In this document: piece after piece, positions 4,877-54,700 of the stretch
How the letters are laid out: each line of letters opens with the position of its first letter
Numbering within the stretch: position 1 is the stretch's first letter
Assembly (NCBI GenBank): GCA_964350985.1
Contig: CAYGLK010000001.1
Span: 292,528-356,527, forward strand
DNA from: an uncultured Candidatus Saccharibacteria bacterium
GTDB lineage: Bacteria; Patescibacteriota; Minisyncoccia; Phycocordibacterales; UBA918
Reading direction: 5' to 3'
DNA length: 64,000 nucleotides
Program-made: the position numbers and the translations under genes
The notes under the pieces: model-generated
Databases searched by the model: none
The model's input: the letters and a program-made list of their open reading frames with translations, nothing else
Told to the model about the DNA's origin: nothing

Positions 4877-4892
4877 TTCTGATAACAAATTG

Positions 4893-4929
4893 CCGCCCGA
4901 TAAATATCGGGCGGCTTTGTCATTCTTTC
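4893..4929. terminator. rho-independent terminator (bidirectional hairpin)
   Basis: GCCGCCCGATAAATATCGGGCGGC is a perfect 9-bp GC-rich stem, followed by TTTGTCATTCTTTC. It sits between convergent genes. Confidence 0.75.
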
Positions 4930-6447: not shown

Positions 6448-6516
6448 ATAGACGCAAGAGTATCAGATAAATAAACAAAAACAATATAGATAAATTTATA
6501 TTAAGTTTCTTGTAGA

Positions 6517-25401: not shown

Positions 25402-27723
25402 TTATTTTACTCCCTCAACTAGCAGTGGGGATTTACGACGAGCTTTGATCATTTGTGCCAATAGCAATAAGATAAAACCAAGAGCAACCAAACCGACTGA
25501 TCCAATAATAATACTACTTGATACAATCTTTTCTCTTTCTCTAGATATTTCTGATTCTAATCCATTTAATGCAGCTGCGCTTAGGTTAGTGTTTTTAGCA
25601 GAATAAGTAAATTCATTTGAACTAACAACTAGTTTTCCTTCATTATTTGGCAAGGCAGCAACGACGGTAACTGGTAAATTTGCTGGCTGGTTTTCCAGTG
25701 AGTAAGAGAAATTACCAACATCATTTGATTTTGTAATTCCAATAATTCCACTATTCTTGGAAATTATATGGGTATGAGCATTTGGTAAAGTTTTACCTTG
25801 AACATTATAAATAAACTTCTCATTCTTGTTTTGATCTTTTATAATTTGCTGCTCAATAGAAAGAAGGTCAATGACACTAGTTTGAGTCACTTGTGTTTTT
25901 AAACTGTTCGCTGGATCAGGATTCTGTGATACGTCTGAATTTTGTGGATCAAACAAATTTATCACCTCTACTCCGTCTATGATCCCGTCTTGATCAGTGT
26001 CAGCGACACTTGGATTAGTTTTAAAGTTTATTAGTTCATCATAATCAGAGATTCCGTCATAGTCTGTATCTCTTGCAATTAAATTATTTGAAGATTGTTT
26101 TAGTTGTAATTCTTTTTGTTCAATCTGACTTAACAAAATATCCAGACGATTTAAAAATACTGTCTCTAAAGCAGAATTCAAGTACCTACCATTTTTTTCA
26201 TTTATTGAAGCGTAGAGCTGATTTTTATAATATTTTACTAAGTTATCCTTAGCTAATACAGTAAGAAAACTACTATCTGTTTGTAGAGAAGCAGCGTATG
26301 TCAGAGTTAGGTAGTCTAGTTCTTCTGACCTTTCATTTAAGGCTTGTTCTATAATATTAGTCTGAGTACTGTCGATAAGCTGATCCTCTGTTGAGGAGTC
26401 AATAATTGAGTTATTACTTGAAAAATAACTTAATCTAGCTTCGTTTGAAGATGAGATATCTTCTAATGCTAGGTTAACTTTTTTAACTAAAATTGCTAAG
26501 TCTTCGTCACGGAGACTATTTTGCGACACGGTTAAATTTGGTCTGTAATTAATACCGGTTGATTGTATTTCGGTGTTTCCTTCTGAAAAAGCAGCATAAA
26601 TAAACATTTGTCTGCTTGGTAACTCTAGAGCCGACATGCTTAGATACCAAATACTTTGAACTAAAGTAGCTTCTCCTAAATAAAGTCTGTTTTGAGATCC
26701 AGGAACTACTCCATAGACCTGAACTGTGTCTGGGGCAAAATTTCCAGTTGAAATCTCAAGAAACTCTGCTCCGTTATTCTTTTCAAGTCGAACTGAGAAT
26801 ATATCTTTATTTAGATCTGGCAGTGGTACTTCAGTTACTTCTTCTCCGTCTTCTGGTTCCACTTCAGCTTCAACTTCAACCCCTTCGTCAGTACTAGTTG
26901 AAGAATCTAAGTCTGTAGTCGTTGAGATGTTTTCAGCTTGAACTAATTCCAAACTTAGTTGTGTCAAAGCAGTTACTTCAACCTCTTTATCTACTACTTG
27001 AAATTCGGGACCTTTAAAAAAGTACTCTATTCCATTCTCTGCCCGAGTTGCAGCTGAAACTATATAGGTTCCAGAAGACAAACTACTTCCAGGTATCAAG
27101 TAACGGTATTTTCCAAGTTCAATTTCTTCAACTGGTTTTAATGATGTTTGACTACCATCTGTAACTGAATTTAAATAAACATCAACATTATTACTATTTG
27201 ATACCTGAACTAAAATGTCATTGTTTGATTCTAGTGTTCTTGGTAGTGAATTAAGAAAATCAACTTCCGGTGCTTGTGGTGTTAGTTGTGTATCTACAAC
27301 TTCATCACATAAACTGGTGCTACACAAAAGTGCTGCTGCATTTAACCCGAGATCTTTGTCTGCTAAATAACCGAAACTTGCAAAGGCGATACCGACAAAA
27401 ACAAAAGCATATCCAGCCACCTTTGTGGCTCTGGTTACATATCTTGGTAAGGTTTCGTCATACCACATTTTGTATAACTCAACTTTTTCTAAAAGACGTA
27501 AGCTGGCCGAAGAAGGCACTTTGATTTCCTCAGTGACATTTTCCGTTGTGATCTTTTTAACGTTAGAGCTAGTTTTAGGTTTTTTAAGATTAACTTTTTT
27601 AAGGTTTTTTACTTTCTCGGTGACTTTTTTTTGAGATTTTTTAGGCTTCAGACTAACAGCCGTTTTTGGTGAAACTTTTTTACCTAAGTTCTTTTCTAGC
27701 TTATTTTCTGCCTTGCTACCCAT
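25402..27723 (-). CDS. hypothetical membrane protein with Lys-rich N-terminus and thrombospondin-type-3-like Ca-binding Asp repeats
   Basis: 773 aa. KK-rich N-terminal tail, a TM helix near aa 100 and a C-terminal TM. DTDYDGISDYDE and DTDQDGIIDGVE are DxDxDGxxD calcium-binding repeats. Confidence 0.5.
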   Translation of the reverse strand: MGSKAENKLEKNLGKKVSPKTAVSLKPKKSQKKVTEKVKNLKKVNLKKPKTSSNVKKITTENVTEEIKVPSSASLRLLEKVELYKMWYDETLPRYVTRATKVAGYAFVFVGIAFASFGYLADKDLGLNAAALLCSTSLCDEVVDTQLTPQAPEVDFLNSLPRTLESNNDILVQVSNSNNVDVYLNSVTDGSQTSLKPVEEIELGKYRYLIPGSSLSSGTYIVSAATRAENGIEYFFKGPEFQVVDKEVEVTALTQLSLELVQAENISTTTDLDSSTSTDEGVEVEAEVEPEDGEEVTEVPLPDLNKDIFSVRLEKNNGAEFLEISTGNFAPDTVQVYGVVPGSQNRLYLGEATLVQSIWYLSMSALELPSRQMFIYAAFSEGNTEIQSTGINYRPNLTVSQNSLRDEDLAILVKKVNLALEDISSSNEARLSYFSSNNSIIDSSTEDQLIDSTQTNIIEQALNERSEELDYLTLTYAASLQTDSSFLTVLAKDNLVKYYKNQLYASINEKNGRYLNSALETVFLNRLDILLSQIEQKELQLKQSSNNLIARDTDYDGISDYDELINFKTNPSVADTDQDGIIDGVEVINLFDPQNSDVSQNPDPANSLKTQVTQTSVIDLLSIEQQIIKDQNKNEKFIYNVQGKTLPNAHTHIISKNSGIIGITKSNDVGNFSYSLENQPANLPVTVVAALPNNEGKLVVSSNEFTYSAKNTNLSAAALNGLESEISREREKIVSSSIIIGSVGLVALGFILLLLAQMIKARRKSPLLVEGVK

Positions 27724-27759: not shown

Positions 27760-29835
27760 TTATTTATTAACGTTTTTTGTCTTCTTTTCCGCCTTTGCTT
27801 TAGCTTTTATATTCTTTTGCTGTTGGTCCAAAAGTGTCTTTATTTCATCTCGCAAAATAGCTGCTGTCTCAAAATCTAAAATTGACACGGCTTCGTCCAT
27901 CAATCGCTTCTTTTCTTTCAAAAATGATTTTGGATTTTTTAGGAAAAGGTCCATATCAACCTTAAGCAGACTATCTACAGTCTCGTCATGATTAGTGCGC
28001 ATTTGGTCAGTAATTGACTTAATTTCTTTTGCAATTGATTTTGGGGTGATGTTGTTTTTTTTATTATACTCCAACTGTAAATCACGTCGGCGGTTTGTCT
28101 CTCCTATTGCTTTATCAAGAGCTGGCGTCATTTCGTCAGCATATAAGACTACTCTACCCTTTATGTTTCTGGCAGCACGACCAATAGTCTGAATTAGAGC
28201 TGTTTCACTGCGGAGGAAACCTTGCTTATCAGCGTCAAGAATAGCTACAAGTTCAACTTCAGGTAAATCTAAGCCTTCTCGAAGTAAGTTTACCCCTACT
28301 AGACAATCGAATTTACCTCGTCTGAAGTCAGTTAGTATCTCAATTCTCTCAATCGTATCGACATCACTGTGAATATACTTAGTGTTAATTCCCTTTTCCG
28401 TTAAGAACTCTGATAGATCTTCAGCCATTTTTTTGGTTAAGGTTGTAGTCAAGACTCTGGCACCAGTACTTATTACTTTGACAGCTTCATCAATAAAATC
28501 TTTTACCTGACCTTTATAGTCACCTTCTTCAGTTATCTTGCGAATATCAATAACAGGATCCACTAATCCAGTTGGTCTAATCACTTGTTCTACCATTGGT
28601 AACTTACTCAAAGATGCTTGTTCATATTCATACTTTCCTGGTGTGGCTGAAGTATAAATTCTTTGGCCAACCCGCTCCTCAAATTCTGAAAACTTAAGTG
28701 GTCGGTTATCGACAGCACTTGGTAGTCTAAAACCAAACTCTACTAAAGTGTCTTTTCGAGAACGGTCACCAGCGTACATACCGTTTATTTGTGGTACAGC
28801 AACGTGTGACTCATCAATGATAGTCAAGAAGTCAGGCTTTCCATCTTTTGTCTGAGGAAAATATGACAGTAGCGTATAAGGAGCTTCGCCTGACTTACGT
28901 CTATCAAAGTGTCGTGAATAATTTTCAATACCATTACAATAACCAACTTCACGCATTAAAGCTAAGTCATGCTGTGTCCGTCGTCGCAATCTTTCGGCTT
29001 CAAGTAACTTCCCTTCTTTTTTAAATTTTTTGAGCTGTTCGTCTAATTCCATCTGAATATCCATAATAGCTACTTTTCGTTCAGCTTCTGGGGTAACAAA
29101 GTGTTTGGCTGGAAATAAGAAAAAACTTTCTGGTTCTTCAATAATTTCTCGAGTAATGGCATCAATTTTTGTAATGTGACTGACTGTGTTACCGCTAAAA
29201 TTAAGTCGATAGATTACTCTTTCATTGGTTGGCATTACTTCCACAGCATTTCCTAGCGCGCGAAAATTTCCTGGAGTAAGGTCAGCATTAGTCCGTTCAA
29301 AATACATTCCGATTAGAGTTCGAAGTAACTCCATTCGCGAAGTCTCATAGCCTCTCTCTAGCTTTAAATGTCGCTTTAGATATTCGGCTGGTGCACCAAG
29401 TCCATAAATACAAGAAACTGAAGCCACGATGATAACGTCTTTTCTGGTTAAAAGAGCTTGGGTAGAAGCATGACGAAGTCGGTCAATTTCTTCATTGATT
29501 TGAGCTTCTTTTTCAATATAAGTATCTGAGGTAGGCATATAGGCCTCAGGTTGGTAGTAATCGTAGTATGAAACGAAATAATGGACAGCGTTGTCAGGGA
29601 AAAAGTCTCGGTATTCTTGAGCAAGTTGAGCCGCCAATGTCTTATTGTGAGCAATAACAAGAGTGGGCTTCTGAATTTGTTGGATAACGTTGGCAGCTGT
29701 GTATGTCTTACCTGATCCAGTAACACCAAAAAGAGTCTGGTGCTTGTGTCCAGCTTTTATTCCCTTTACCAAACTAGCAATCGCTTTAGGCTGATCTCCT
29801 GCTGGTGTTTTGTCTGTTGCGAGCTTGAATTCCAT
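27760..29835 (-). CDS. uvrB: excinuclease ABC subunit B
   Basis: N-terminus FKL...PAGDQPKAI..L..G...G...QTLFGVTGSGKT (helicase motif I), DEAD-like motifs, a beta-hairpin region and a C-terminal UVR domain. 691 aa. Confidence 0.95.
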   Translation of the reverse strand: MEFKLATDKTPAGDQPKAIASLVKGIKAGHKHQTLFGVTGSGKTYTAANVIQQIQKPTLVIAHNKTLAAQLAQEYRDFFPDNAVHYFVSYYDYYQPEAYMPTSDTYIEKEAQINEEIDRLRHASTQALLTRKDVIIVASVSCIYGLGAPAEYLKRHLKLERGYETSRMELLRTLIGMYFERTNADLTPGNFRALGNAVEVMPTNERVIYRLNFSGNTVSHITKIDAITREIIEEPESFFLFPAKHFVTPEAERKVAIMDIQMELDEQLKKFKKEGKLLEAERLRRRTQHDLALMREVGYCNGIENYSRHFDRRKSGEAPYTLLSYFPQTKDGKPDFLTIIDESHVAVPQINGMYAGDRSRKDTLVEFGFRLPSAVDNRPLKFSEFEERVGQRIYTSATPGKYEYEQASLSKLPMVEQVIRPTGLVDPVIDIRKITEEGDYKGQVKDFIDEAVKVISTGARVLTTTLTKKMAEDLSEFLTEKGINTKYIHSDVDTIERIEILTDFRRGKFDCLVGVNLLREGLDLPEVELVAILDADKQGFLRSETALIQTIGRAARNIKGRVVLYADEMTPALDKAIGETNRRRDLQLEYNKKNNITPKSIAKEIKSITDQMRTNHDETVDSLLKVDMDLFLKNPKSFLKEKKRLMDEAVSILDFETAAILRDEIKTLLDQQQKNIKAKAKAEKKTKNVNK

Positions 29836-29984
29836 AGCTAGAGTATAGCGTGATATTAATGATTAAAAAAGCAAGATGAGGCATTTACTGTACCTCAATT
29901 ATTTATGGTATTTAAAAAAACAAACACCACCCCGATGAATTGGAATGGTGTAAAATAAAGCTCAATAACAACCCCCAAAGAAAC

Positions 29985-30707
29985 TTAGGTCTGAGGGCCA
30001 ACTTGCGAAAGAACGAACGCAAAACCGTCACTTTTATGCAAAACTTCGCCAGGTTCGACATATTCCAGACAGAGATCGTTGCCTTTTGCATCTCTGCTCG
30101 TGATCAGCATGTGTGGGTTACCGCGATAATCCTTAAAAGGTTCGTGCATCGTGACGATTCTGCGCAAACCCATCTGCTTCAGCTGTTTGTCTGTGAATGT
30201 GTCGCGAATCAAGCAAGCTATCTCCCAGTGAGGCGTAATCCAGCCATTCTCGTTTGCTTGTGATGAAATTTTCTCCCTGGTACAGTTGCCTTCACCCATC
30301 CTGCTGCCGGGACGCAACAAGACTTCATGTGTTGTTCCTGCTTGGGTTTCAACCGGTACGTCTTTTGCGCTACAAAACAAAGGATTCATCGTCCACCTTT
30401 CCAACACAAAACCTCGGCGTTCAAGGTGTTCTCTCCACTGTTTGCGGGTAAAGCCAGTGCTGACAAGAGTAAAACGAACGTTGCCCTCGTCGTCAATAGT
30501 CCATTTGTCGTCGTTAGTAGGCGTCGTCGGAACGACGCTCCCATCTGCGACCATGACAAGTTTTGCTGCCCCTGTCCGTAACAGCCTGATTGCAGAAAAA
30601 TTTTTGCCGGTTGAGAGGTACTCGATATCCTCTTCTGTTCCGTCGCAACTATCAACTGCGTATTCGAGTCTGATTCTTGTTGAGCGATTAATAAGCAACT
30701 TGCTCAT
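29985..30707 (-). CDS. hypothetical protein on a GC-rich island (probable horizontal acquisition)
   Basis: 240-aa ORF with an AGGAGA RBS 8 nt before the ATG. Local GC is visibly about 50% against about 36% in the flanks. I recognise no conserved motif. Confidence 0.55.
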   Translation of the reverse strand: MSKLLINRSTRIRLEYAVDSCDGTEEDIEYLSTGKNFSAIRLLRTGAAKLVMVADGSVVPTTPTNDDKWTIDDEGNVRFTLVSTGFTRKQWREHLERRGFVLERWTMNPLFCSAKDVPVETQAGTTHEVLLRPGSRMGEGNCTREKISSQANENGWITPHWEIACLIRDTFTDKQLKQMGLRRIVTMHEPFKDYRGNPHMLITSRDAKGNDLCLEYVEPGEVLHKSDGFAFVLSQVGPQT

Positions 30708-30984
30708 ATCCGTTTCTCCTGGTTGTGTAAGACTACCTATTCTGAATATTGAATGGCCATTTTTGATTTACAATCTTTTCGTCGTTGAGAACAACTCCTG
30801 ATGCCCTAATGCTAAGGCATTTCAAAGAACTGGTTTTTAATTATGTAAAATTAATTAGTATTTGTCAATCTTAAAAAATCTACTCATGGCCTACAGTATA
30901 AAATTTCTTTAGTAGTAACTCTACATGGAGAGATGATTTTTTACTGACTGGTATATGTATTATTGTTGCGTTCTTAGCTTAATT

Positions 30985-32187
30985 CTAAGAAAGTAACTTT
31001 TCACGCAGTTTCTTGGTGAAGTTTACAATAAAGTAGAGATTGTGTAGCGACGCCAAGTGTGGGCCAAGCATTTCGTGCGAGCGGAATAAGTGAGCTAGAT
31101 AAGCTTTAGTATAATTTTGGCAGACATAACAATCACAAGTTTCGTCTGGTTTGGAGAAGTCTCTAATATATTTTTGGTTTAAAAGATTTATTCGCTTCAT
31201 TCCTTCATTTGTTCTTTCATAAATAGTTCCAGTTCTAGCAATTCTAGTAGGTGCCACACAGTCAAAAGTATCACATCCAAGACGAACGCCCTCAACAATA
31301 TCTTCTGGTTCACCGATACCAAGTAAGTGTCGCGGCTTATCCTCAGGTAAAACTGTATTTACTACTCTGAGAGCTTCACCAAGATCAGCTTTACTAAAAC
31401 TGCCACCAATACCAAAACCGGCAAAATCCATCGCCGCCAACGTCTCAGCGCTTTCTTTTCTTAGATCTAGATGTCTACCTCCTTGAACTACACCAAAAAG
31501 ACCTTGTTTCTTCACCGCTTGGTAATTCTGCTTATGAGCCATGACGCTCCGTTTAGCCCAGCGGTGGGTTCGGTCCATTGCTGCTTTCTGGTATTTATAG
31601 TCTGCAGTTGGACTAGTACACTCGTCAAAGGCAATGATGATATCTGCCCCGATATCATGCTGAATTTCAATAGAACGCTCAGCAGTAAAACGATGCATAC
31701 TACCATCAATGTGTGAGGTGAAAGTTACTCCTTCTTCATCGATGATACACAAGCGACCATGCCCTGAAGCGAAGTCTTTAGAGTAGACATTTACTCCATG
31801 AGGGTTGATCTCAGTTTTTTCTTCTACTTCACCCTTGGAAAATTTAGTCACTCCTTTTCCAAAAGCAGCACCGAGCGAAAAAACTTGAAAACCACCTGAA
31901 TCAGTAATAGTTGGGAGCTTCCAGTTGGAGAACTTGTGGATCCCCCCAGCTTCTTTTACTACATCAGAACCGGGCTGGAGAAATAAGTGGTAAGTATTTG
32001 CTAAAGCTACCTGATTACCAACATAATCACGCATATCTTCTGGCTTAACACTTTTTACTGTTCCTTTAGTACCCACCACAACAAAAGCCGGAGTTTCAAT
32101 ATCTCCGTTTGGAGTATGAATGATTCCGGCTCGTGCTAAAGTATTTTTTTCTTTTTTTAAGATTTCAAACTTTATTGGGTCTGACAT
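30985..32187 (-). CDS. tgt: queuine tRNA-ribosyltransferase
   Basis: TIM-barrel TGT motifs (TPAFVVVGTKG, catalytic Asp regions). C-terminal zinc site CDCYVCQNYTKAYLAHL. Confidence 0.9.
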   Translation of the reverse strand: MSDPIKFEILKKEKNTLARAGIIHTPNGDIETPAFVVVGTKGTVKSVKPEDMRDYVGNQVALANTYHLFLQPGSDVVKEAGGIHKFSNWKLPTITDSGGFQVFSLGAAFGKGVTKFSKGEVEEKTEINPHGVNVYSKDFASGHGRLCIIDEEGVTFTSHIDGSMHRFTAERSIEIQHDIGADIIIAFDECTSPTADYKYQKAAMDRTHRWAKRSVMAHKQNYQAVKKQGLFGVVQGGRHLDLRKESAETLAAMDFAGFGIGGSFSKADLGEALRVVNTVLPEDKPRHLLGIGEPEDIVEGVRLGCDTFDCVAPTRIARTGTIYERTNEGMKRINLLNQKYIRDFSKPDETCDCYVCQNYTKAYLAHLFRSHEMLGPHLASLHNLYFIVNFTKKLREKLLS

Positions 32188-32214
32188 AGAATGGATTATA
32201 ACCCGACTCCTTCT

Positions 32215-32754
32215 TTATTTTACTTCAAGTAGTTCAATTGAGAATATCAGAGTTGAGTTTGCTGGAATTGGGCCATATCCATTTTCACCATAGGCTTTAT
32301 CTGGTGGAATAACTAAGATTCGTTCTCCGCCAACTTTCATTCCTAAAAGTCCCTCTTCCCAGCCTTTAATCACCTTTCCTTCACCGACTGTAAAGCTAAA
32401 TGGTTCACCTCGTTTGTGTGAGTTATCAAACTCAGTACCGCTTTGTAACTTACCAATATAGTGTACTGAGACAGTGTCTCCAGCCACTACTTCCTTACCT
32501 TCTCCAATCTTAATATCATCAATCACAAGTTTTTTTATGTTACCACGTGAGTCTGCTGCTTCAATTAAAGCTGACGCTCGTGAGCTATTATTACTTTCTC
32601 CAACCACAACAACCCCGGTGTTTTGAGCTCCAGCGAGCTGTGTAGAGCTATTTTCAAGCCCAATTACCGTTGATTCAAGCCTTATTAGGTAAAGAGCCGC
32701 CGCCATAAACAAGACACTTAGCCCAATACCGATAAATTCAAATTTACTTAACAT
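32215..32754 (-). CDS. FKBP-type peptidyl-prolyl cis-trans isomerase
   Basis: N-terminal TM or signal. FKBP core VHYIGKLQSGTEFDNS...FSFTVGEGKVIKGWEEGLLGMKVGGERILVIPPDKAYG. Confidence 0.85.
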   Translation of the reverse strand: MLSKFEFIGIGLSVLFMAAALYLIRLESTVIGLENSSTQLAGAQNTGVVVVGESNNSSRASALIEAADSRGNIKKLVIDDIKIGEGKEVVAGDTVSVHYIGKLQSGTEFDNSHKRGEPFSFTVGEGKVIKGWEEGLLGMKVGGERILVIPPDKAYGENGYGPIPANSTLIFSIELLEVK

Positions 32755-32763
32755 ATTATTTAA

Positions 32764-33855
32764 TTATGGTGTCATAATAACGACTTCTGAGGAAGTTGCA
32801 AGGTTTTTAAGATAGTTGATTTCAGCGGAGATAATTTCATTATAAAGTCCTTCTTGGCTTAGATCAGCCAATTCTCGAAGAAAAACTTTTTGGTTTTCTT
32901 CGTTCATATACTTTGGTTGTACTCGTGAATCGATACTTGTCACCGGTATCAGTTTAATTTTTATATTTTCTTTGAAAGAAAGATCTAACATTAAACCTTC
33001 TTGTACCTGTCTTGAAAAATATTGATCAAAAATAAAATTACCTAAAGAATAAAATACCAAAGTGTTATCCAGCCATTCTATTCCTTGTACTACATGAGGA
33101 TGATGGCCAATAACCAATTCAGCACCAAGATCAGAAAATACTTTGGCTTGATTTCTTTGTGACGCAGATTGTGTTTGATTGTATTCACTCCCCCAGTGAA
33201 CAAAAACAATTTGAATATCGCTATTTTGTGAAGCCTTGGTAAAAACTTCTTTTAAGTCATTCTTAGAAAGAAATTCATCTATTGTCATTAATGCTATTAT
33301 GGCTACTCTATTTTTTTCTAGTTCTAAATAAGTTATTGAGGACGTAGAAATAACAGTAGGGTTTCCAAAAGCAGTAACATTGTTCTTTTCAAGTTGAATT
33401 AAAGTATTTTCGTAACCTAGTTTACCAAAATCAAAAGCGTGATTATTTGCTAAAGAGACATGTGTTATTCCTACTGCCTTAAGATCAAGTAAAGATGCCT
33501 CTGAAACGGAAAATTGAAAGTTAAAATCTGGAGTTGGTTGATGAACAACCGGGACTGCCGCCTCAAAGTTTGCAACCACGTAAGTATTTTGTTCTAGAAA
33601 ATTAAAATTTTTAAAGGCTGATGCTACGCCATTTTTTTGTAGACGTCTTTCAACGTTTCTACCAAGCATTAAATCCCCTAAGAAATAGATGTTAGTTTTT
33701 GGCTTATCTATAATATGATCTGTCCCTTGAGTAAAAGTGCCGTAATTAAAATTTGGTGTGCTGCTTGGCTTATTATTAATAAAAAAATTCCATAAATAAA
33801 TACTGGAAATTATAAGTAGTATGAATAGAAAAAAACTTCTCCTAGATTGATCCAT
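32764..33855 (-). CDS. CapA family protein (metallophosphatase fold, poly-gamma-glutamate capsule-synthesis-like)
   Basis: Motifs LANNHAFDFG, VHWGSEY and IGHHPHVVQGIE, with an N-terminal signal or TM. Start set at the internal Met (MDQSRR...). The track's 33933 start would overlap the upstream gene by 90 nt. Confidence 0.75.
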   Translation of the reverse strand: MDQSRRSFFLFILLIISSIYLWNFFINNKPSSTPNFNYGTFTQGTDHIIDKPKTNIYFLGDLMLGRNVERRLQKNGVASAFKNFNFLEQNTYVVANFEAAVPVVHQPTPDFNFQFSVSEASLLDLKAVGITHVSLANNHAFDFGKLGYENTLIQLEKNNVTAFGNPTVISTSSITYLELEKNRVAIIALMTIDEFLSKNDLKEVFTKASQNSDIQIVFVHWGSEYNQTQSASQRNQAKVFSDLGAELVIGHHPHVVQGIEWLDNTLVFYSLGNFIFDQYFSRQVQEGLMLDLSFKENIKIKLIPVTSIDSRVQPKYMNEENQKVFLRELADLSQEGLYNEIISAEINYLKNLATSSEVVIMTP

Positions 33856-34282
33856 AGGTTTTACTGGCACCAAAGGCAGAGGCTGTTGGATGGAAAAAAC
33901 CAACCTCGTATATATACATAGCGATACCAACACCCAATATAGCGATAATAATTGCTAAAGCAGTAACGATAGCTGTCTGATAGCCAGTTAACTCTCTACT
34001 TCTTGATTGGGTCACTTGAACGTTACCAATCTGAACTTCAATCCCAAGCAAGGCTGAGATTTCAGCCGGTTTGAGTGCGTCAGTAGTAAGAAAGACTTTT
34101 TGTAAATCCGTGAACTTAAGCGGATTTCCACTTGAGTTTTCTTTTAAGAGCATTATGGCAGATTCTATTTCTTCATTATTATAAGAAGCCCTGAGTAAAA
34201 TCTCACGTATTTCATCAGGAGAAGCATTTATGCTTACGCCATTTATTTTAAGAATAGTTTCTAGTTGATTTCTTTGAAACAT
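33842..34282 (-). CDS. hypothetical protein with C-terminal TM helix
   Basis: 146 aa. Soluble N-terminal domain, then a TM (IVTALAIIIAILGVGIAMYIY). Confidence 0.4.
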   Translation of the reverse strand: MFQRNQLETILKINGVSINASPDEIREILLRASYNNEEIESAIMLLKENSSGNPLKFTDLQKVFLTTDALKPAEISALLGIEVQIGNVQVTQSRSRELTGYQTAIVTALAIIIAILGVGIAMYIYEVGFFHPTASAFGASKTYGSI

Positions 34283-34285
34283 GAT

Positions 34286-35344
34286 TTACTTTTTTATGCC
34301 GACTTGGATGTATTGATTGTAAACCTCTAGCAAGACAATGAAAAGCGTAACTATCACCGGTCCGATAATAAATCCAATCGGACCAAAAGTTGTGATTCCT
34401 CCTAAAACTGAAGTAAGCATGATAAAAGGATGCAAATTATTACCTCGACTCATCAAGTAAGGCGCCAGCATATTGTCTATCACAACGATAGTAACTAGAG
34501 ACCAGACAATCAAACCAACCGCCGCACCAGTTGAACCGGTTAGGAACAAAAAGATAATACCAGGGATCATAATCGCTGTTGTACCGATTCCTGGGATGAC
34601 AGAAAGAATTGCTCCCACCGCTCCCCAAAGTACCGCTTTTTCAATACCAAAAATAGTGAAACCAAGAGCTGCTAAAACTCCTTGAATAATGGACACCAAT
34701 AGCACTCCTGTTGCCACTGAGCGAACAGCTAAGCTTAATCGAGAAATAATGATTTCATCGTCCCTGTCTGGTAAGGGGCTGATTTTAATAGCCAACTTGA
34801 TAAATTCCTGTCCATCCCTAAAGAAATAAAACGAACCGATAAGAGAGATCAGTACCACAAATATGGTAGAAACCGTACTGGCAAAGATGGCTCCAATATT
34901 ACCTACTAACCATTCAGCTCCTTGGCGTAACTCACCGGTTATATCAAGCTTAAAGTCTGGTAGATATACCTGTACTACTGACTCAAAATTAGCTATATAG
35001 ACTTCAATTGTCATCTCCTGGCCAGCTCCAAGGGCATTATAAAAACTAGCTAATTCTCTAACAAATATTGTAGAGATGAAGATTAAAGGCAGGATAATAA
35101 GCACTACTACGATCAATGTTGTCAAAGCAGCTGCTAAACTTTTGTGTTGTTTATAGACTCGCTTTTTTACTTGCTCATACATTGGGTAGCAGATAGTAAC
35201 GATCACAATCGCTAGAGCCAGAGCAGTAACAAAAGGTGACATCACCTGCCAGACCAAATACCCTGAACCAGCTAGTACAAGGAAAAAGAAAACATACTCA
35301 ACAACACGATTGATTGACATAATTGTTATAACTATAGCAGGCAC
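34286..35344 (-). CDS. AI-2E family transporter (PerM/YhhT-like permease)
   Basis: 352 aa, about 8 TM helices, with the characteristic spacing and a Gly-rich TM near the C-terminus. Confidence 0.75.
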   Translation of the reverse strand: MPAIVITIMSINRVVEYVFFFLVLAGSGYLVWQVMSPFVTALALAIVIVTICYPMYEQVKKRVYKQHKSLAAALTTLIVVVLIILPLIFISTIFVRELASFYNALGAGQEMTIEVYIANFESVVQVYLPDFKLDITGELRQGAEWLVGNIGAIFASTVSTIFVVLISLIGSFYFFRDGQEFIKLAIKISPLPDRDDEIIISRLSLAVRSVATGVLLVSIIQGVLAALGFTIFGIEKAVLWGAVGAILSVIPGIGTTAIMIPGIIFLFLTGSTGAAVGLIVWSLVTIVVIDNMLAPYLMSRGNNLHPFIMLTSVLGGITTFGPIGFIIGPVIVTLFIVLLEVYNQYIQVGIKK

Positions 35345-35351
35345 ACGAATA

Positions 35352-35384
35352 AAGGGCCAGGTGTAAACACTGGCCCTTTCTTCA
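35352..35384. terminator. hairpin terminator
   Basis: AAAGGGCCAG-GTGTAAACA-CTGGCCCTTT, followed on the minus strand by a TTTATT tract. Lies 3' of the small minus-strand gene. Confidence 0.55.
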
Positions 35385-35544
35385 TTGTTTGATCAAGCGT
35401 TCTTCGGCGACAACAGCTGCAGTTTGCAAAGTTTGGAAACCTTGCGAAGCGGCGTCATCAAGCGCGGTGAATGCTTGGTCAAAGAAATGGGATAAAGCTG
35501 TAAGAACGATCAGAAAACCAATTGCTTTTCTCATAAATTTCATG
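35383..35544 (-). CDS. small (53 aa) single-TM hypothetical protein, GC-rich
   Basis: Translation MKFMRKAIGFLIVLTALSHFFDQAFTALDDAASQGFQTLQTAAVVAEERLIKQ. Not in the ORF track, which lists only longer ORFs. Followed by a hairpin terminator. Confidence 0.35.
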
Positions 35545-35665
35545 AAAATTAAGCGACCCGGAAACTCATTTATTAGATGAGTTCAAATAAAAATTTTGGG
35601 ACGCTAGCAATTGAGTCAATGAACTGACCCGCTTATACTATGTCACATTATTCAACTCTCTGCAA

Positions 35666-36928
35666 TTATTTATCAAAACCACCCCGGAGCGAAATAGCTT
35701 TGGCCATTCTTTCAATTCCTAGTAAATAAGCCGCTTCACGGTAGGTTGTGGTTTCGGTTTTCTTATCACTGACTTCGTGGAAAGCTTTTACTATCTTTTC
35801 ATGTAAGCGTTCACAAACAGTTTCAGCAGTCCAATACCAGTGTTGTCTATTTTGAACCCATTCAAAATACGAAACCATTACTCCACCAGCGTTGACTAAT
35901 ACATCTGGTAGTATATCAACCGATTTTTTTGACAAAAATTCTTCTGCTTCTGGAGTTACAGGATTATTGGCTAGCTCCAAGATAACTTTTGTTTTTACTT
36001 TTTCAACATTGGACTTTGTGATGACGTTATCTAGTGCAGCTGGTACCAGTAAATCACAGTCAACAAAAAGTACTTCTTCAGACTCAGATATTGTTAGTTC
36101 AGTTTCGCATTTAAAATCAATTACTGAACTCTTTGGGTTTTCATTTTTAAATTTTTCTAAGGCTACTGGATCAATACCTGAAGTTGAAGATATTGTCCCT
36201 CGACTATCTGAGATAGAGACAATCAAGCTTCCTTTTGCGTGTAGAAGTTTTGCAATTGTCGCACCAGCGTTCCCAAAGCCCTGAATCGCGACTCTAAGTT
36301 TATCGAGTTTTAAATCATACTTTTCAGCATAAGCTATAAATACATAGACTGCTCCTTGAGCAGTAGCTGTATCACGACCCAAACTTCCACCGAGTGGTAC
36401 AGGTTTACCTGTAATAAAAGCTGGATTACTTCTACCAGTAGTTTGTTCTGCTTCATCAAGCATCCAAGCCATTATTTGTGGAGTTGTATAAACATCAGGA
36501 GCGGGAATATCAACGTCAGATCCTAAATATGGTAAGAAAGCTTGTACATAAGCTCGTGCTACTACCTCTAAATCGCTCTGGGTGTATTTTTTAGGGTCAC
36601 ATACCACTCCTCCTTTAGCTCCACCAAATGGCACGTCGACAACAGCACACTTAACAGCCATAGCTGCAGCTAGTGCAGACACTTCAGACTCGTCTGCTAG
36701 TGGATGAAAACGAATACCGCCTTTGTATGGTCCACGGGAATTATTGTACTGAACTCTGTACGCTTCAAGACTTTCATTTCCTTGAGATGTTTTTACTTTA
36801 AGGGTGTCGTTACGAATAAATTGAGGCTTCAACATTTTTTCAAGAACAGCTGACTCTACCTTGAGTGTTGCTGCCGCTTTCTTAATATGTGAGCTGATTT
36901 GTTGGAAAGGGTCGTTTTTGTTGCTCAT
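35666..36928 (-). CDS. Glu/Leu/Phe/Val dehydrogenase (glutamate dehydrogenase-like)
   Basis: Catalytic Lys motif GPYKGGIRFHP, VDVPFGGAKGG, and the Rossmann GFGNAG dinucleotide-binding motif. Confidence 0.9.
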   Translation of the reverse strand: MSNKNDPFQQISSHIKKAAATLKVESAVLEKMLKPQFIRNDTLKVKTSQGNESLEAYRVQYNNSRGPYKGGIRFHPLADESEVSALAAAMAVKCAVVDVPFGGAKGGVVCDPKKYTQSDLEVVARAYVQAFLPYLGSDVDIPAPDVYTTPQIMAWMLDEAEQTTGRSNPAFITGKPVPLGGSLGRDTATAQGAVYVFIAYAEKYDLKLDKLRVAIQGFGNAGATIAKLLHAKGSLIVSISDSRGTISSTSGIDPVALEKFKNENPKSSVIDFKCETELTISESEEVLFVDCDLLVPAALDNVITKSNVEKVKTKVILELANNPVTPEAEEFLSKKSVDILPDVLVNAGGVMVSYFEWVQNRQHWYWTAETVCERLHEKIVKAFHEVSDKKTETTTYREAAYLLGIERMAKAISLRGGFDK

Positions 36929-46834: not shown

Positions 46835-48526
46835 TTATTCTTGCACAGATTCGGGGGTTTGTTCAACTGGATCGATCTCAATCTGCGGATCAAGCTTTTC
46901 AATAACAAGATCAAACTCCGCCAGAGTTGTCTCACTCTCCTCAATCGGTGGGTTTTCAAGTAAATCTCCTATTTCTAAAGTTGATGTAGACAGGTCTAAT
47001 GTCAGTGTAGGTGTAGTAGTAGACACAACTAAATTTTCAACAACATTAGGTTCGGGATCACTAATTGATGGAGTGGTTGTGGCTCCGGTTAATTCTTCAA
47101 CTTCTGACTTTAAGCTAGGCTTACTTTGTATCAGTGCTCTAGTTTCGCCAGTAGAATCACTGGTTGGAATATCTTTTGGTAACTCCCGAGGAAGTGTATC
47201 AAGCTCAATAAACCTTTTAGCCAGAACGTCATAACCTTTAGTGACAATATCACCATTAGGAGAAAGTGAATCGTAAACAAAAACCATCCGTGGATTAGAT
47301 ACAGATAAACCATCTGGATCATCGACAGATACGTATGTCTTACTGTCCATATTGTAGATCTCAATTGTCTTATTACCATTCTTATCGTGGCGATTCCAAA
47401 CTACAAGTGAACCGTGTAAATAAGGTGCGACATTATTACCTGTTGTCGTTGTTATTTGATTTTCTTTCTTCCCATCGTAGAGAATGATATTCCAGCCTCC
47501 ATCAACCCAGCGCTGCCAAACAATATAATCACCCTGCTTAGTAGGCTCCATATTATTTGAACTTGTGTTTGTCAGGATTGTTTCTGTCTTTGTATCAATG
47601 TCATAGAGGATAACTTGATAACGATCGTTAATTAGTCTATGCCAGACAATTGTATCGGTATTTTGGTCATAATATGGCGCTGAGTCATCTTCTTTGTTTT
47701 TTGTTATCTGAACTTGAACCCCGTCTCGAACAAAGAATATCTCCAAATCGCCATCTGCATCTGGAGCTGAGAATAGAGCGTCTTCAAGAGCATTGTCTGG
47801 CGACTTAAGACAATAGAATGAACCTGTAGCTAATTGAGTACATTCATCTCTCGTAAATGAAAATGCACTATCACTTTGGGTAATAGAAACAGCTTCGTGC
47901 GTAACCTCAACTGATTCAGCTTCATCAACTACTTCTTCAACAATTTCGTCGACCTCCTCTATCGCCTCCTCATCAACAAGCTCTTGTTCTTCTATTTCTT
48001 CTTCAGAAGTAGTTCCATTAGACTGATCAGCTTCGCTATCTATCTCAATTACATCCTCTAAGGTAGAGGATGAATTATCAAATACAACAGTTGTTGTCGC
48101 ATTTAGATCATTAAATCCATCAGCCTCATCAATAAGTTCATCGGTATCTTCTTGGGACTCCTCTACAATCTCTTCTTCCTCTTCAGCAATAGTGTTTTCA
48201 GTCTCTATAGCTGGCACAACATCAACAATTACATCTTCAGGTGCAATTTCAACAACTGTATTTGAGGTATCGTTACTTACTTCATAATCTGCATAAGCAG
48301 ATTCAACTCCTTGAAGTAAGAAAGATATTAGTATTAAAAAACTAGCACAGAACGAAAAAGTGCTTGAATATACAAATCGGTACAAGAAAACTCCTTGGCT
48401 ACCTTGACTGTTTTGCTCCTCTGCGCAAACAGAAAAACTGTCCAAAGTTCTTTTTTGGTATCTTGTTTTAGTTTTTGTTTGGATTTTCTTACTCATCAGA
48501 CAACAGCCATTTGTAGCGGAGAGCAA
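46835..48526 (-). CDS. secreted protein with acidic linker and TolB-like (PD40) beta-propeller repeats
   Basis: N-terminal TM. Long E/D-rich region. Repeats of the W..DG..I.LYD...K....IT type (IVWHRLINDRYQVILYD, YIVWQRWVDGGWNIILYD, LVVWNRHDKNGNKTIEIYNMD). Confidence 0.5.
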   Translation of the reverse strand: MLSATNGCCLMSKKIQTKTKTRYQKRTLDSFSVCAEEQNSQGSQGVFLYRFVYSSTFSFCASFLILISFLLQGVESAYADYEVSNDTSNTVVEIAPEDVIVDVVPAIETENTIAEEEEEIVEESQEDTDELIDEADGFNDLNATTTVVFDNSSSTLEDVIEIDSEADQSNGTTSEEEIEEQELVDEEAIEEVDEIVEEVVDEAESVEVTHEAVSITQSDSAFSFTRDECTQLATGSFYCLKSPDNALEDALFSAPDADGDLEIFFVRDGVQVQITKNKEDDSAPYYDQNTDTIVWHRLINDRYQVILYDIDTKTETILTNTSSNNMEPTKQGDYIVWQRWVDGGWNIILYDGKKENQITTTTGNNVAPYLHGSLVVWNRHDKNGNKTIEIYNMDSKTYVSVDDPDGLSVSNPRMVFVYDSLSPNGDIVTKGYDVLAKRFIELDTLPRELPKDIPTSDSTGETRALIQSKPSLKSEVEELTGATTTPSISDPEPNVVENLVVSTTTPTLTLDLSTSTLEIGDLLENPPIEESETTLAEFDLVIEKLDPQIEIDPVEQTPESVQE

Positions 48527-48611
48527 TATATCCCATCACTATATAATAATAGCAGTAATTTATAAGAGTTTTTTACTGGTTATCAACACTTAATAGTAGT
48601 ATTTCGAATCT

Positions 48612-49364
48612 CTAATTTAAAAAAGATTTTGCCAAAATTATTGAAAAATCCACAAAATTCATTCGCCCGTCATTATTAAAATCGTAAGTAGTTTCCTGAG
48701 TTCTCCAAGAGGCCATAAAAGCGCTAATATCACTCAAAGTTACCTTTCCGTCACCGTTTATATCAGCGTTAATGACAACTCCTAAACGAGCTTTTAATTC
48801 ACCGGGAGCAGTACTCTGGTCATAGATATAAAAACTTGTCTTTGATTCTGCACCGGTATTTTTTACTGCTACTGGAGTTCCTCTACCGTCACCAGCTAGC
48901 AGATTGGCATTTTTAACCACAAATTCTGTCTGTCCAGTGCTAATAGCTTTAGCTTTTATGGTTGCAATCAAATGTTCTCCAATAAAACCTTTCTGGAAGG
49001 TGCCACCACTAAACTTAATTGAGTCACTAGAAATCACTGGCTCTTGAGTCCAAATAGTAAGTACAGACTGTGCCTTGTCTACACTTATAATTTCAATTGA
49101 ACCAGGAATAAAATCTATAGTTATATCAAGTGCGTTGACTGGTACGTGCGCTGAAGCGTAAACTTGTATATTAAAACGTTCACCTGCCAGCACATTTACC
49201 TGTGAAGGGACAAGTTTGATGTAAGACTTATCAGTAGATACAACTGACGCACCCAATATAGCCAAAGCGCCAAAAAACAAAGGAAACATATAACGAACAT
49301 TGGCTCGTTTATGTATTGGATACAGGTTTTTAATTTTTCTCCACAAAAGAGAGAAATAAATCAT
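48612..49364 (-). CDS. cohesin-domain + dockerin-domain surface protein
   Basis: N-terminal signal. Cohesin-like module (VLAGERFNIQVYASAHVPVNALDITIDFIPGSIEIISVD). C-terminal dockerin with two Ca-binding loops (DINGDGKVTLSDISAFM and DFNNDGRMNFVDFSIIL). Confidence 0.65.
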   Translation of the reverse strand: MIYFSLLWRKIKNLYPIHKRANVRYMFPLFFGALAILGASVVSTDKSYIKLVPSQVNVLAGERFNIQVYASAHVPVNALDITIDFIPGSIEIISVDKAQSVLTIWTQEPVISSDSIKFSGGTFQKGFIGEHLIATIKAKAISTGQTEFVVKNANLLAGDGRGTPVAVKNTGAESKTSFYIYDQSTAPGELKARLGVVINADINGDGKVTLSDISAFMASWRTQETTYDFNNDGRMNFVDFSIILAKSFLN

Positions 49365-49368
49365 AATC

Positions 49369-50022
49369 TTAGATTAATTCAGAACGCAACCTTGAAGCCT
49401 CTGCAGTGGCATTAGTTAATTGTGTTCTTATTACTTCTGCTTCTACTCTAATTTCTTCGACGCTTCTAACATTACTAGAAACTGTACCGAGAAGAGTACT
49501 AATTATCTCATCTTGTGCTCGAACCAACTGAGTAAATAATAGAGCTATCTCATTTTCTTTTTTAGCTAGATCATTCCATTTTACTAGATCAATTTCAGCA
49601 TATTCCTCGTCAGTGATTTGATTTAGAGATTCAACTTTATTTTCAAGTGAAGCAACCTCGTAACCTAGTTTTAAGGACATCACTGACCGACGACTTGAGG
49701 CCCTGTCGCCACAGCGGTCAAAGAGTGATTTTAGCTCAATAAGATCACTGCGAGATAGACCCTTATCTAATGAGGAGAGTAAGGTGTCATACTTAGTAGA
49801 ATCGCCAGAGCTACAGTCAGGAACAATTTCACTAACATCTTCAGACACTGCTCCGCGACCAAGAATAGTAGCGGTTTCTTTTAGAGTGCTAATTTGATTT
49901 TCAATATTAGTTTCAGTGTATTTTTCTAATTCTTTTGTTTTAGTATCAGCGATAGCGCTTGATAAAAAATAAACACAAATGATTCCTAAGAGTAAGCCTG
50001 CGATTCCGTATTTTGTATTCAT
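49369..50022 (-). CDS. hypothetical membrane-anchored coiled-coil protein
   Basis: 217 aa with an N-terminal TM, then helical and charged. Confidence 0.4.
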   Translation of the reverse strand: MNTKYGIAGLLLGIICVYFLSSAIADTKTKELEKYTETNIENQISTLKETATILGRGAVSEDVSEIVPDCSSGDSTKYDTLLSSLDKGLSRSDLIELKSLFDRCGDRASSRRSVMSLKLGYEVASLENKVESLNQITDEEYAEIDLVKWNDLAKKENEIALLFTQLVRAQDEIISTLLGTVSSNVRSVEEIRVEAEVIRTQLTNATAEASRLRSELI

Positions 50023-50042
50023 ATTTATATTTTAAATTAAAC

Positions 50043-51779
50043 TTAAACTAAATTCTCAACATCTAGCACTTCTTTTTCAATCCTCTTCTCTGAATCTTGC
50101 AGAGCTTGCTTTAATTCTTCAACCAAAGTTTCTTCTGCTTTTGTCAGTTTCTTTGTTTTCCTAGAATTTACTAACTCGTCCTTCTTCACATCAATCAAGC
50201 TCTGTAGTTTTTTAAATTCTCCAAGCATGACTGTCTCAACTTCTTTTGATTCTTTAGAGACACTTCTTCTAAACTTTCTGAAGTAAGCAATTAAGAAGAA
50301 GGTAGCAATGACTAATAAAACTAGCATTGCTAAGAGCGGAATTAAGACAGAGAGTATATTTATGATAAATGACCCTACTTGTATGTACCCTGGCTCTTGG
50401 ACAGCTATCCTAATAGTATCAGAAATTTCTGATTCAGCACCCGAAGCATCTTTTGCTTTGGCTTTTAGTTCATAAACACCGATAGTAAAAGTGCCTGATG
50501 GTATTAAAGTATATATCCCCTCAGTGTCGGCTACCACATCATAGAATACTGCTTCAGAACCAATTTTTTTAACTTCAATGTTTACTTCAGCTCCAGGTTT
50601 TGTTGTACCTTTAATTACCGGTATTACTTCTTCGTTTATTTCAGATGGATAGTCAGTGAAGACTGGTTTAGCAAAAGAATCTACAGTCAGAGAATAACTA
50701 GCTATTAGACCATTACCAGCCTCATCAATCGCCTCGATTATAATGGCGTAATAGCCAGGAGAGAGATCAGTTAAAACAATTTTTCCAGTCGCTTCCGTAT
50801 CTTCGTACTCATAAGCTTCATCGTTATTAATTTTTATCTTAAACCGTCTTACTTCAGATGATTCATCTTCTACTTTATAAAGTATTGTTTGTTCTGGACT
50901 AGATGAGTCAAATTCTTCGGGTTGAGAGAGTTCAAATAGACTTGGACTTATTGTGTCAACCGCTAACCGATAGTGAGCTACCCTTCCCCATCCGTCTTCA
51001 TTTCTAAATTGTAAGTGAAAGTAAGAGACTCCTTCATCTAGATCATTTAAGGTAATTTCAGTTATTGGAGTCTCGTACACTTTGGTTGGAATAGATGATG
51101 CAGAACTATCTAGCAAAGTCCTGACTCCAGTAATTCCTGCAGGTAGAGTCCAGGTCAGACTAGCATCTTTCTTTTTATACCAAAGTAAAGGATCTGCATG
51201 AGTACCCGAAGAGATGCTTGGCTGTCCAGGTGTATTGGCAGGCGCAACATATTCAACTACTTCTGGCGTCGGGCTAGTAGAAGGCGCTTGAACTGTAAAA
51301 GTTCCTCCGTTCATACCAGAAAGTACATTTGTACCCATGCCATCATTAGCCAAAACTGAACCACCAGTTAAAGACAGTCTAGCTGTAGCTGCAGCTTTTG
51401 TTCTAAAAGTTATATTGAAGATACGTCCAGCGCTTCCGGTGTACCCAGACGGAAGTCCTCCACTGAAGTTAATTGTTCCAGCAGAGTTGGAAAAAGCTGG
51501 TTCAGTAACCCATAAGTTAAAAATTGAATTTGATCTATCAACCGAAACCACTGAAAGTTCGTTAGGATTAAACTTAAGGTTTCCTTCCGCAGCGTTAATA
51601 GGTTTCCCTTGAGTGTTCACCACCACTTGAACAGTAAAAGTTGTTCCAGCTGAATAAACTCCCGTACCTGGTGAAACTGATAGAGTAGCTGCGTCAGCGA
51701 GGAAAGGTGAAATAAACAGTACGATCAGTAGAATTAATTGTGTCAGTTGTGTTTTAAATTTCATACTAATTCTATTCAA
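50043..51779 (-). CDS. cohesin-domain surface protein with Ig-like repeats, C-terminal TM anchor and cytoplasmic coiled-coil tail
   Basis: Signal peptide ...FLADAATL. Cohesin-like N-terminal domain (SVSPGTGVYSAGTTFTVQVVVNTQGKPINAAEGNLKFNPNELSVVSV). TM near aa 470-495. Confidence 0.6.
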   Translation of the reverse strand: MNRISMKFKTQLTQLILLIVLFISPFLADAATLSVSPGTGVYSAGTTFTVQVVVNTQGKPINAAEGNLKFNPNELSVVSVDRSNSIFNLWVTEPAFSNSAGTINFSGGLPSGYTGSAGRIFNITFRTKAAATARLSLTGGSVLANDGMGTNVLSGMNGGTFTVQAPSTSPTPEVVEYVAPANTPGQPSISSGTHADPLLWYKKKDASLTWTLPAGITGVRTLLDSSASSIPTKVYETPITEITLNDLDEGVSYFHLQFRNEDGWGRVAHYRLAVDTISPSLFELSQPEEFDSSSPEQTILYKVEDESSEVRRFKIKINNDEAYEYEDTEATGKIVLTDLSPGYYAIIIEAIDEAGNGLIASYSLTVDSFAKPVFTDYPSEINEEVIPVIKGTTKPGAEVNIEVKKIGSEAVFYDVVADTEGIYTLIPSGTFTIGVYELKAKAKDASGAESEISDTIRIAVQEPGYIQVGSFIINILSVLIPLLAMLVLLVIATFFLIAYFRKFRRSVSKESKEVETVMLGEFKKLQSLIDVKKDELVNSRKTKKLTKAEETLVEELKQALQDSEKRIEKEVLDVENLV

Positions 51780-52839: not shown

Positions 52840-52952
52840 TGTAACAAGAAAGCCGAACTTAGATCCGCGCTGTACACAGAAAACAAAAAACCCGTCTCGT
52901 GGTGGGAGATAGGGTTTCTTGCGTTAACTCCAAGCTTGGAGCCAATATTACT

Positions 52953-54107: not shown

Positions 54108-54467
54108 GTTGCTCTACGTTGTATTAGTTTTTCAGCTTAGATATACGTCGCGACCGAAAACTAAATGAGCAGATACTCATGCAGGAACAGGTCTCCACTC
54201 CTGTTTCCCTATATGTGCGCTCAAAAACATACCTACTTTGAAACACTCGGCTGAAGTGATCAAATACAGCTACGCCGTATTTGCAGTAAGACTAATTTCT
54301 TACCCCCAAAATAAGTACCTCTTCATTGTAACTTTAATTATTTTTTAGTCGGTTACTTTATACACATTATTTAGTACTTCTGAGCCAGAAAAGTAGTCGA
54401 TTTCTCAAAATAATAATTGCATTGAGATTTTAAAACTATTAATCACTTTTTGAGAGGTCAATAATAC

Positions 54468-54640: not shown

Positions 54641-54700
54641 CTTATCTCTAAGTTCCAAAGAAAACAAAACCTTTCACTCGACTAAAAGGTTTTGTTTAGT

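Follow-up and report, generated by a model that had tools for sequence, protein, structure and literature searches.

A GC-rich gene between tgt and uvrB in a Saccharibacteria genome: a lone, probably orphaned member of a Patescibacteria family of diversity-generating retroelement targets

Diversity-generating retroelements (DGRs) have a defining signature, which consists of a template repeat (TR) and a variable region (VR) with adenine-restricted mismatches, together with Avd and a reverse transcriptase (RT). In bacteria of the candidate phyla radiation (CPR), the DGR targets that form 'clade 2' in Roux et al. 2021 (PMC8144416) are small and lack recognisable domains, and the CPR set described by Wu et al. 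2018 (PMC5758913) has ungrouped or UVR-class variable regions, these being VR classes that are unassignable to a fold. The gene described here is found in 64,000 nucleotides of DNA from an uncultured Candidatus Saccharibacteria bacterium (assembly GCA_964350985.1, contig CAYGLK010000001.1, positions 292,528 to 356,527). This whole stretch is called the window, and all coordinates are those of the window. The gene encodes a protein of 240 aa and forms a GC-rich island between uvrB and tgt (Table 1). Judged by its homologues, it is a diverged, lone member of a family of DGR variable (target) proteins. The copy in the window is fairly likely to be an orphaned DGR target, inserted in this lineage, that would code for a fixed-sequence, probably cytoplasmic ligand-binding protein.

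The link between the island gene and DGRs is provided by its relatives. In loci L003, L011, L101, L106, L110, L123, and L126, a family gene lies immediately upstream of bAvd, on the minus strand, and RVT_1, on the plus strand. For instance, the order in L003 and L011 is homologue, spacer of ~500 bp, bAvd on the opposite strand, and RVT_1 reverse transcriptase, and the spacer holds a second copy of the final ~129 nt of the homologue, with 86-88% identity. In the family cassettes, RVT_1 was confirmed by Pfam, and bAvd scored below its curated cut-off (34.6 vs 40 bits). Mismatches between TR and VR are located at adenines of the TR in 16/16 cases in L003, 14/18 in L011, 14/14 in L101, 21/22 in L106, 21/24 in L110, 21/21 in L123, and 16/16 in L126. 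There is also a locus, L102, where RT and Avd lie ~2 kb from the family gene and no template repeat was detected. In total, a family gene accompanies bAvd and RT in eight independent loci. Since the TR/VR mismatches fall almost only at adenines, beside bAvd and RT, the family can be identified as one of DGR variable proteins, and by sequence the island gene is a member of it. Over its full length, the island protein has 47-52% identity to P0002, P0004, and P0008 (E 1e-63 to 1e-68; the figure of 52% comes from protein alignment A1); for the genes of these three proteins, 14/18, 16/16, and 21/21 of the mismatches to the template repeat are at adenines. DGR linkage is observed as well in relatives at 34% identity to the island protein (L106 and L110). 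In the protein alignment, family members are ~85-95% alike outside the VR, and the hypervariable columns are located exactly at the AAC codons of the TR.

The original prediction had recognised no motif in the protein. In agreement with this, the island protein has no match by sequence in Pfam, PADLOC, or PDB, and a search against PHROGs gave a single chance match (E = 0.31), but homologues do exist. Among 5.8 billion proteins searched, 35 are full-length homologues (E down to 9e-68), all labelled hypothetical and none with more than 52% identity to the island protein. An exhaustive search yielded 936 family cluster representatives at 50% clustering, which have in common the C-terminal ~170 residues, and the family is Patescibacteria-specific. 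A profile built from 117 diverse members found no Pfam family. In PDB, the same profile matched only 9ncf_S, a phage tail protein, by a short motif resembling Ig repeats, and this match was judged a motif-level coincidence.

An AF2 model of the island protein, made from a deep alignment, has a pLDDT of 86.5, with values above 90 over aa 121-230, and its C-terminal domain has a predicted beta-alpha-alpha-beta-beta-beta-beta topology. About half of the 20 best Foldseek matches in PDB are C-type lectin-like domains, all of them not significant (E >= 1). Thus, a C-type lectin fold, which is usual for DGR targets, is plausible for the predicted structure. The N-terminal part is modelled as helices at residues 8-20, 25-32, and 34-44, and this module differs between family members. 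One N-terminal module (LREFTTGPLNQLIVNLGGQDGDQWEQQLKQFLRKEPCWTNGQ) is common to some of them (P0026 and P0029) and to a target with a different VR domain at L120:4450-4600, which suggests that N-terminal modules may be shuffled among CPR DGR targets. Close to this last target, at L120:8542-12993, AbiEii, an N6_N4 methyltransferase, and a ResIII helicase adjoin the L120 DGR, in what looks like a small defence island.

In the complete cassettes, RT and Avd would copy the template repeat of ~129 nt with errors opposite adenines, and the mutated copy would be written into the last ~43 codons of the target gene. Homing of this kind would randomise ~15 positions on a probable C-type-lectin-like binding surface. 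In an orphan such as the window copy is proposed to be, the composition would be drifting toward that of the host.

Members of the family are frequently found alone. Among family loci with sufficient flanking sequence, approximately half are lone copies (L002, L005, L007, L104, L107, L108, and L125), and these sit between housekeeping genes, such as prfA and rpsB, smc and rnr, or scpB and scpA, and upstream of rpsH. From these placements, relocation of family genes seems to be common. Whole target-bAvd-RT cassettes are found in comparable surroundings, at L123:6089-10109 and L003:8001-11991, within or beside the conserved secE-nusG-rplK string, and this placement is in line with a remark in the literature on the interleaving of CPR DGRs with ribosomal protein genes. 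Between scpB and scpA, a lone copy (P0032, in L007-L010) has lost an internal stretch of its N-terminal part and has an insertion, PPVLVPPG, in its C-terminal part. Its sequence is the same in the contigs of four samples, and the copy resembles a target in decay, without ongoing diversification. RT P0271 belongs to a DGR with another target, and there is no match between the template repeat of this DGR and the VR of the lone relative L108.

Several characteristics suggest that the window copy has lost its retroelement. Searches of the 64-kb window by tblastn with two RT and two Avd cassette sequences gave only noise (E >= 0.39), and no repeat of the 3′ end of the island gene was found in it, the best non-self match being 33 nt at 76%. 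The family template repeats align only weakly to the VR-equivalent segment at 30003-30131, with mismatches at 15-17 of 32-33 adenine sites and 40-43 of 96-97 non-adenine sites (~50% vs 42%). For the VRs of the lone copies L002, L005, and L007, the comparison with the family template repeats gives differences at 40-58% of adenine sites and 11-18% of non-adenine sites. After the stop codon, a hairpin of the form CTAAG..GGAC-TTCG-GTCC..CTTAG is found both in the DGR-linked L011 and L126 and in the lone L002, L005, L007, and L107. A hairpin in the equivalent position is needed for efficient homing in the DGR of Bordetella phage BPP-1 (PMC3240598). This family hairpin is absent after the stop codon of the window gene, where unrelated AT-rich sequence and a terminator-like hairpin are located. 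Beyond the hairpin, (G)TCCTTnG or CCTTGG-like motifs are repeated in L002, L003, L005, L011, L101, L106, L110, and L126, and may be a recognition element shared across subfamilies; the window has a single TCTTTGG as their counterpart.

The protein itself has also diverged. It is the most divergent member, with ~50% identity to all its relatives, and it has replacements at otherwise near-invariant scaffold residues, VR positions included (W182R, Y183R, W223L, and G227D). The core motif PHWE[IV]ACLIRDTFTD..L.QMGL..IVTMHEP is retained. At third codon positions, the window gene (A3 0.24, C3 0.28, GC3 0.51) stands between the family norm (A3 0.06-0.16, C3 0.34-0.45) and the host. The lone position, the absence of adenine bias in the VR, the lost hairpin, the changed scaffold residues, and the intermediate composition together speak for a copy in which diversification has ceased and whose composition is ameliorating toward that of the host, although no single one of them is decisive.

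Some observations weigh against an orphaned, fixed-sequence copy. Only 64 kb of the 528-kb contig were read, and a DGR with its own diverged template repeat could lie elsewhere. The loss of the hairpin is not decisive, as the L101, L110, and L123 subfamilies, which have working cassettes, also lack GGAC-TTCG-GTCC. The C-type lectin fold has no statistical support, and a biochemical function is known for no family member. Finally, the ORF is uninterrupted and its length is exactly that of the family, and the 22 nt that follow the VR are identical to those of the family at 21/22 positions, both of which fit a target that is still functional. The tail in question (CAAGTTGGCCCTCAGACCTAAG) lies directly before the point where family homology ends, just past the stop codon, and its synonymous-codon identity is 6/9 to 9/11 vs ~50% elsewhere in the gene, a weak enrichment.

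Alternatively, the gene might still be active as a DGR target, with a retroelement and TR more than 30 kb away in the 528-kb genome diversifying it in trans. Besides the intact reading frame, the conserved IMH-like segment of 22 nt, and the slightly raised synonymous conservation of the tail, this explanation can draw on the rest of the family: about half of its loci with adequate flank are lone, the lone L002, L005, L007, and L107 retain the 3′ hairpin, and the VRs of the first three of these vary mainly at adenine sites. Moreover, non-adjacent targets have been documented for other DGRs (PMC5758913, PMC8144416). Nevertheless, the window has no template repeat, RT, or Avd, and the family hairpin has been lost exactly past the stop codon. 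Third-position adenine, at 0.24, is not depleted as it is in serviced copies (0.06-0.16), and the VR has AAA, AGA, and GAA codons, which are unusual for an AAC-templated VR. In addition, the published survey saw no remote targets for CPR DGRs, and the lone relative P0032, with its identical sequence in four samples, is not visibly diversifying. Diversification in trans is therefore considered an unlikely, though still credible, state for the window gene, and an orphaned target is the preferred interpretation.

The gene had been noticed by its composition, as a GC-rich island in an AT-rich genome, and the island is real. In 200-nt windows, GC is 0.465-0.515 between ~30000 and 30700, and it falls to 0.37-0.41 toward uvrB and to 0.285-0.33 toward tgt. 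An abrupt return to background had been proposed for both edges; this holds on the tgt side, but the edge at the uvrB flank is more gradual, with GC of 0.40-0.43 there. The island ORF has 48.3% GC vs 38.7% for the whole window, and it is the top of all 723-bp windows (z = 3.3). Its GC3 is 0.508 vs 0.23-0.32 in neighbouring genes, and among the 44 window ORFs of at least 150 aa, with a median GC3 of 0.283 and a next highest value of 0.363, it is the strongest outlier. The compositional anomaly resides in codon choice. Long spurious ORFs had also been described on both strands, and they are found as overlapping ORFs of 65-171 aa on the plus strand and one of 89 aa on the minus strand.

This composition is observed throughout the family. 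The family gene has a higher GC than its flanks in 31/31 loci, the excess being 4 to 25 points. Across eight complete cassettes, GC is 54-61% in the target, 33-53% in the host flanks, and 29-43%, at or below host GC, in the genes for RT and Avd, which lie no more than 2 kb from the target. For instance, in L110 the target has 60.4% GC, the RT 29.2%, and the flank 35.1%. In L003, L011, L101, L102, L106, L110, L123, and L126, GC-richness is confined to the target gene and the template repeat. The unrelated second target family of L120 has a similar contrast between the target (4450-5163) and the RT (6001-6993); in this locus, the gene caller put a wrong-strand ORF over the GC-rich target. Thus, the odd composition of the island is a family trait and not a scar of transfer. 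As GC-richness is family-wide whatever the host, it is unsafe here to conclude that a gene is foreign or recent from its GC.

The original prediction had seen in the island the recent horizontal acquisition of a stand-alone accessory gene with a possible defence, toxin, or immunity function, in which case the GC would mark a donor genome and retroelements would have no part. The atypical composition and the lack of the gene in relatives at the same site would fit such a transfer, and one homologue adjoins a HicA/HicB pair. However, there is no usable PADLOC, Pfam, or PHROG match, no family member was found on viral contigs or in phage or plasmid records, and no relative with more than 52% identity is known. 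Furthermore, the TR/VR evidence makes family members DGR targets, and the GC-richness is common to all relatives whatever the host and is not extended to the co-located RT and Avd genes. A generic transferred gene of this kind is already largely refuted and very improbable, and the proposed functions find no backing. Of the original interpretation, what stands is a stand-alone accessory gene that is lineage-specific at its site. Its acquisition is not demonstrably recent, because no relative exceeds 52% identity and its GC3 is halfway to the host value.

The position between conserved housekeeping genes was confirmed for both uvrB and tgt by Pfam. The order PGA_cap-FKBP-tgt-slot-uvrB-large surface protein is kept in Paceibacteria relatives, with tgt 71-85% identical; the slot corresponds to 29836-30984 in the window. 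The island gene has no homologue at this position in any of 25 related Paceibacteria loci (from L014-L045 and L082, those including both tgt and uvrB being counted). The slot is essentially empty (10-67 bp) in 7/25, it holds a gene of ~210 aa for an HD_4 protein (RelA/SpoT-like HD) in 11/25, the closest relative L014 among them, and it has other content in 7/25, such as a transposase-like ORF (L017) or an AT-rich ORF of 182 aa (L025). When aligned with L014, the window is homologous up to the stop codon of tgt and again from a point ~40 nt 5′ of the uvrB start. No remnant of an HD_4 gene was found in the window slot, and the island is flanked by no convincing repeats, whether direct or inverted, and by no target-site duplication. 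The island has neither a mobility gene nor a second gene. At the level of comparative synteny, the island gene is a lineage-specific insertion at the tgt-uvrB slot.

Conversely, the gene could be ancestral at this slot and have been lost or replaced in all sampled relatives, as the content of the slot varies and is subject to turnover. This is most improbable, given that the gene is present in 0/25 relatives, that an HD_4 gene across close and distant relatives suggests an older occupant, and that the composition of the gene is far from that of the host. An artefact, be it an assembly chimera, contaminating DNA, or a GC-rich stretch with a spurious ORF, would have in its favour the origin of the sequence from a metagenome-assembled genome and the several overlapping ORFs on both strands. 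In fact, an independent Logan assembly of run ERR3534985 has 100% identity to window 29000-36707 over 7708 bp and spans both junctions, which makes a chimeric assembly unlikely. Given full-length homologues, a confident AF2 model, and the presence of a promoter-like site, a ribosome-binding site (RBS), and a terminator-like hairpin, an artefact of any kind can be practically discounted.

One feature of the family that is worth pursuing is the compositional contrast within cassettes. In a set of 19 non-independent family genes from loci L002-L116, third-position A is 0.03 in the VR bin, then 0.07, 0.08, 0.10, 0.15, and 0.15 per 25-codon bin toward the 5′ end, and ~0.2 in the N-terminal bins, such that the gradient reaches ~500 nt beyond the templated region. 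T3 is also lowered in family genes, and hence adenine mutagenesis alone cannot explain the pattern. Expression-linked codon bias as a cause of the GC3 excess was ruled out, the neighbouring ribosomal-protein genes being without such bias. The published analysis compares whole-DGR GC with host GC (PMC5758913), and no report was found of a contrast between target and RT within a cassette. Perhaps mutagenic homing by the retroelement requires the GC-rich, adenine-poor composition or leaves it behind as a long-term footprint, although this is put forward as a rather doubtful idea. If this were so, the window gene would be an orphan relaxing to the host composition, and the degree of relaxation could date the loss of the DGR.

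In terms of its own organisation, the island is a single gene in a lineage-specific segment of ~1.1 kb, which holds a promoter-like site, a leader of ~130 nt, an RBS, the ORF, and a terminator-like hairpin (Table 1). A stand-alone gene of 240 aa with its own AGGAGA had been predicted, and this is what is found, the RBS lying 7 nt 5′ of the ATG. Promoter-like sites in the region are as many as shuffles predict. No Rfam match was obtained in the island or in the leader, and no signal peptide or transmembrane (TM) segment was seen in the protein by eye.

Table 1. Features of the island and its flanks (window coordinates).
Feature	Position	Strand	Basis or remark
Island gene, coding sequence of 240 aa, 723 bp	29985..30707	-	ORF list; diverged, lone member of the Patescibacteria DGR variable-protein (target) family by homology
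uvrB, downstream flank	27760..29835	-	Pfam UvrB_inter, UvrB, UVR, Helicase_C
tgt, upstream flank	30985..32187	-	Pfam TGT, E = 1e-127
Lineage-specific segment, ~1.1 kb, from tgt stop codon to conserved uvrB promoter region	29875..30984		Pairwise alignment with L014 and slot survey
VR-equivalent segment, aa 193-235	30003..30131	-	Codon register; same length as the VR of relatives
3′ end of VR scaffold and tail (GGTTTTGCGTTCGTTCTTTCGCAAGTTGGCCCTCAGACCTAAG)	29984..30026	-	Last 22 nt 21/22 identical to family post-VR, IMH-like segment
Small helical N-terminal module, ~aa 1-57, then low-confidence linker, aa 58-64	30537..30707	-	AF2 model m52771749eb09
Shine-Dalgarno AGGAGA, 7 nt 5′ of ATG	30715..30720	-	Read from sequence
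Sigma-70-like promoter TTGACA-17-CATAAT, 11/12 matches, ~130 nt 5′ of ATG	30840..30868	-	Consensus match only
Terminator-like hairpin, 10-pair stem and T-run, 33 nt past stop codon	29914..29951	-	Where the family GGAC-TTCG-GTCC hairpin would be

Other parts of the window were observed along the way. Downstream of uvrB, at 25402-27723 on the minus strand, a protein of 773 aa has thrombospondin-type-3-like repeats (DTDYDGISDYDE...DTDQDGIIDG) and a C-terminal TM anchor; its position is conserved in relatives, and its sequence is only 22-33% identical. A series of large secreted or anchored surface proteins, several of them Thr/Gly/Ala-rich, occupies 46835-59073 on the minus strand, and some have dockerin-like Ca-binding repeats (DINGDGKV..., DLNRDGKVNLVDF) and cohesin-like domains. 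The weak HD_4 matches at 48.6-49.1 kb were traced to surface proteins that are cohesin/dockerin-like. The other GC-rich spots of the window, at 53.1-53.6 kb and 58.0-58.3 kb, are Thr/Gly/Ala-rich surface proteins unrelated to the island.

As a consequence of the TR/VR evidence, an unannotated family of hypothetical proteins, with 936 cluster representatives and no Pfam model, gains an identity as a Patescibacteria DGR variable protein. Its targets are lone about as often as they are accompanied by the retroelement, which matters for DGR censuses that count only RT-adjacent VRs. The case also advises caution in the calling of islands, since here a compositional anomaly is a property of a gene family and not evidence of a recent transfer. 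If the contrast within cassettes were general, DGR targets and orphans could be found from composition alone. The contrast raises the mechanistic question of what keeps target genes GC-rich.

The locus can be compared with several described systems. Like single-gene islets attributed to horizontal gene transfer, the island has an atypical composition, is missing from relatives at its site, and occupies a slot of variable content. Unlike them, it has no integrase, tRNA, target-site duplication, or terminal repeats, and its atypical composition belongs to the family and not to a donor. The remote targets of Treponema denticola (PMC5758913) offer a second comparison, as in both cases a gene of a target family is found far from any RT, here as far as is seen in the window. 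Remote DGR targets are defined by a distant TR that matches except at adenines, and none was found in the window. A further difference is that no remote targets have been reported for CPR DGRs.

With the best-studied variable proteins, namely Mtd of Bordetella phage, TvpA of Treponema, and TaqVP of Thermus (PMC2408619, PMC6328139), the family shares a C-terminal VR with AAC-rich templating. The window VR ends in a motif similar to G-F-x-x-V (GGFAFVV), and the predicted topology would fit, C-type lectin-like domains being dominant among the Foldseek matches, which are not significant. By contrast, there is no detectable sequence similarity to these proteins and no Pfam match to FGE-sulfatase or DUF1566. 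The fold match lacks significance, no phage context is observed, and the window protein is probably cytoplasmic.

The closest likeness is with the CPR DGR targets. The window copy departs from them in that it has no cassette within 64 kb, no subfamily hairpin, and no adenine-poor codon usage, and in that it is the most divergent member found. Nevertheless, the window protein is a full-length homologue of these targets, with 47-52% identity. The proteins of the family, like CPR DGR targets in general, are small, have no recognisable TM segment or conserved domain, and have the VR in their last ~45 residues. Similarly, the usual layout in the family, with a single adjacent target followed by the template repeat, bAvd, and RT, is that of CPR DGRs, and its cassettes are, as in CPR DGRs, wedged among housekeeping or ribosomal genes.

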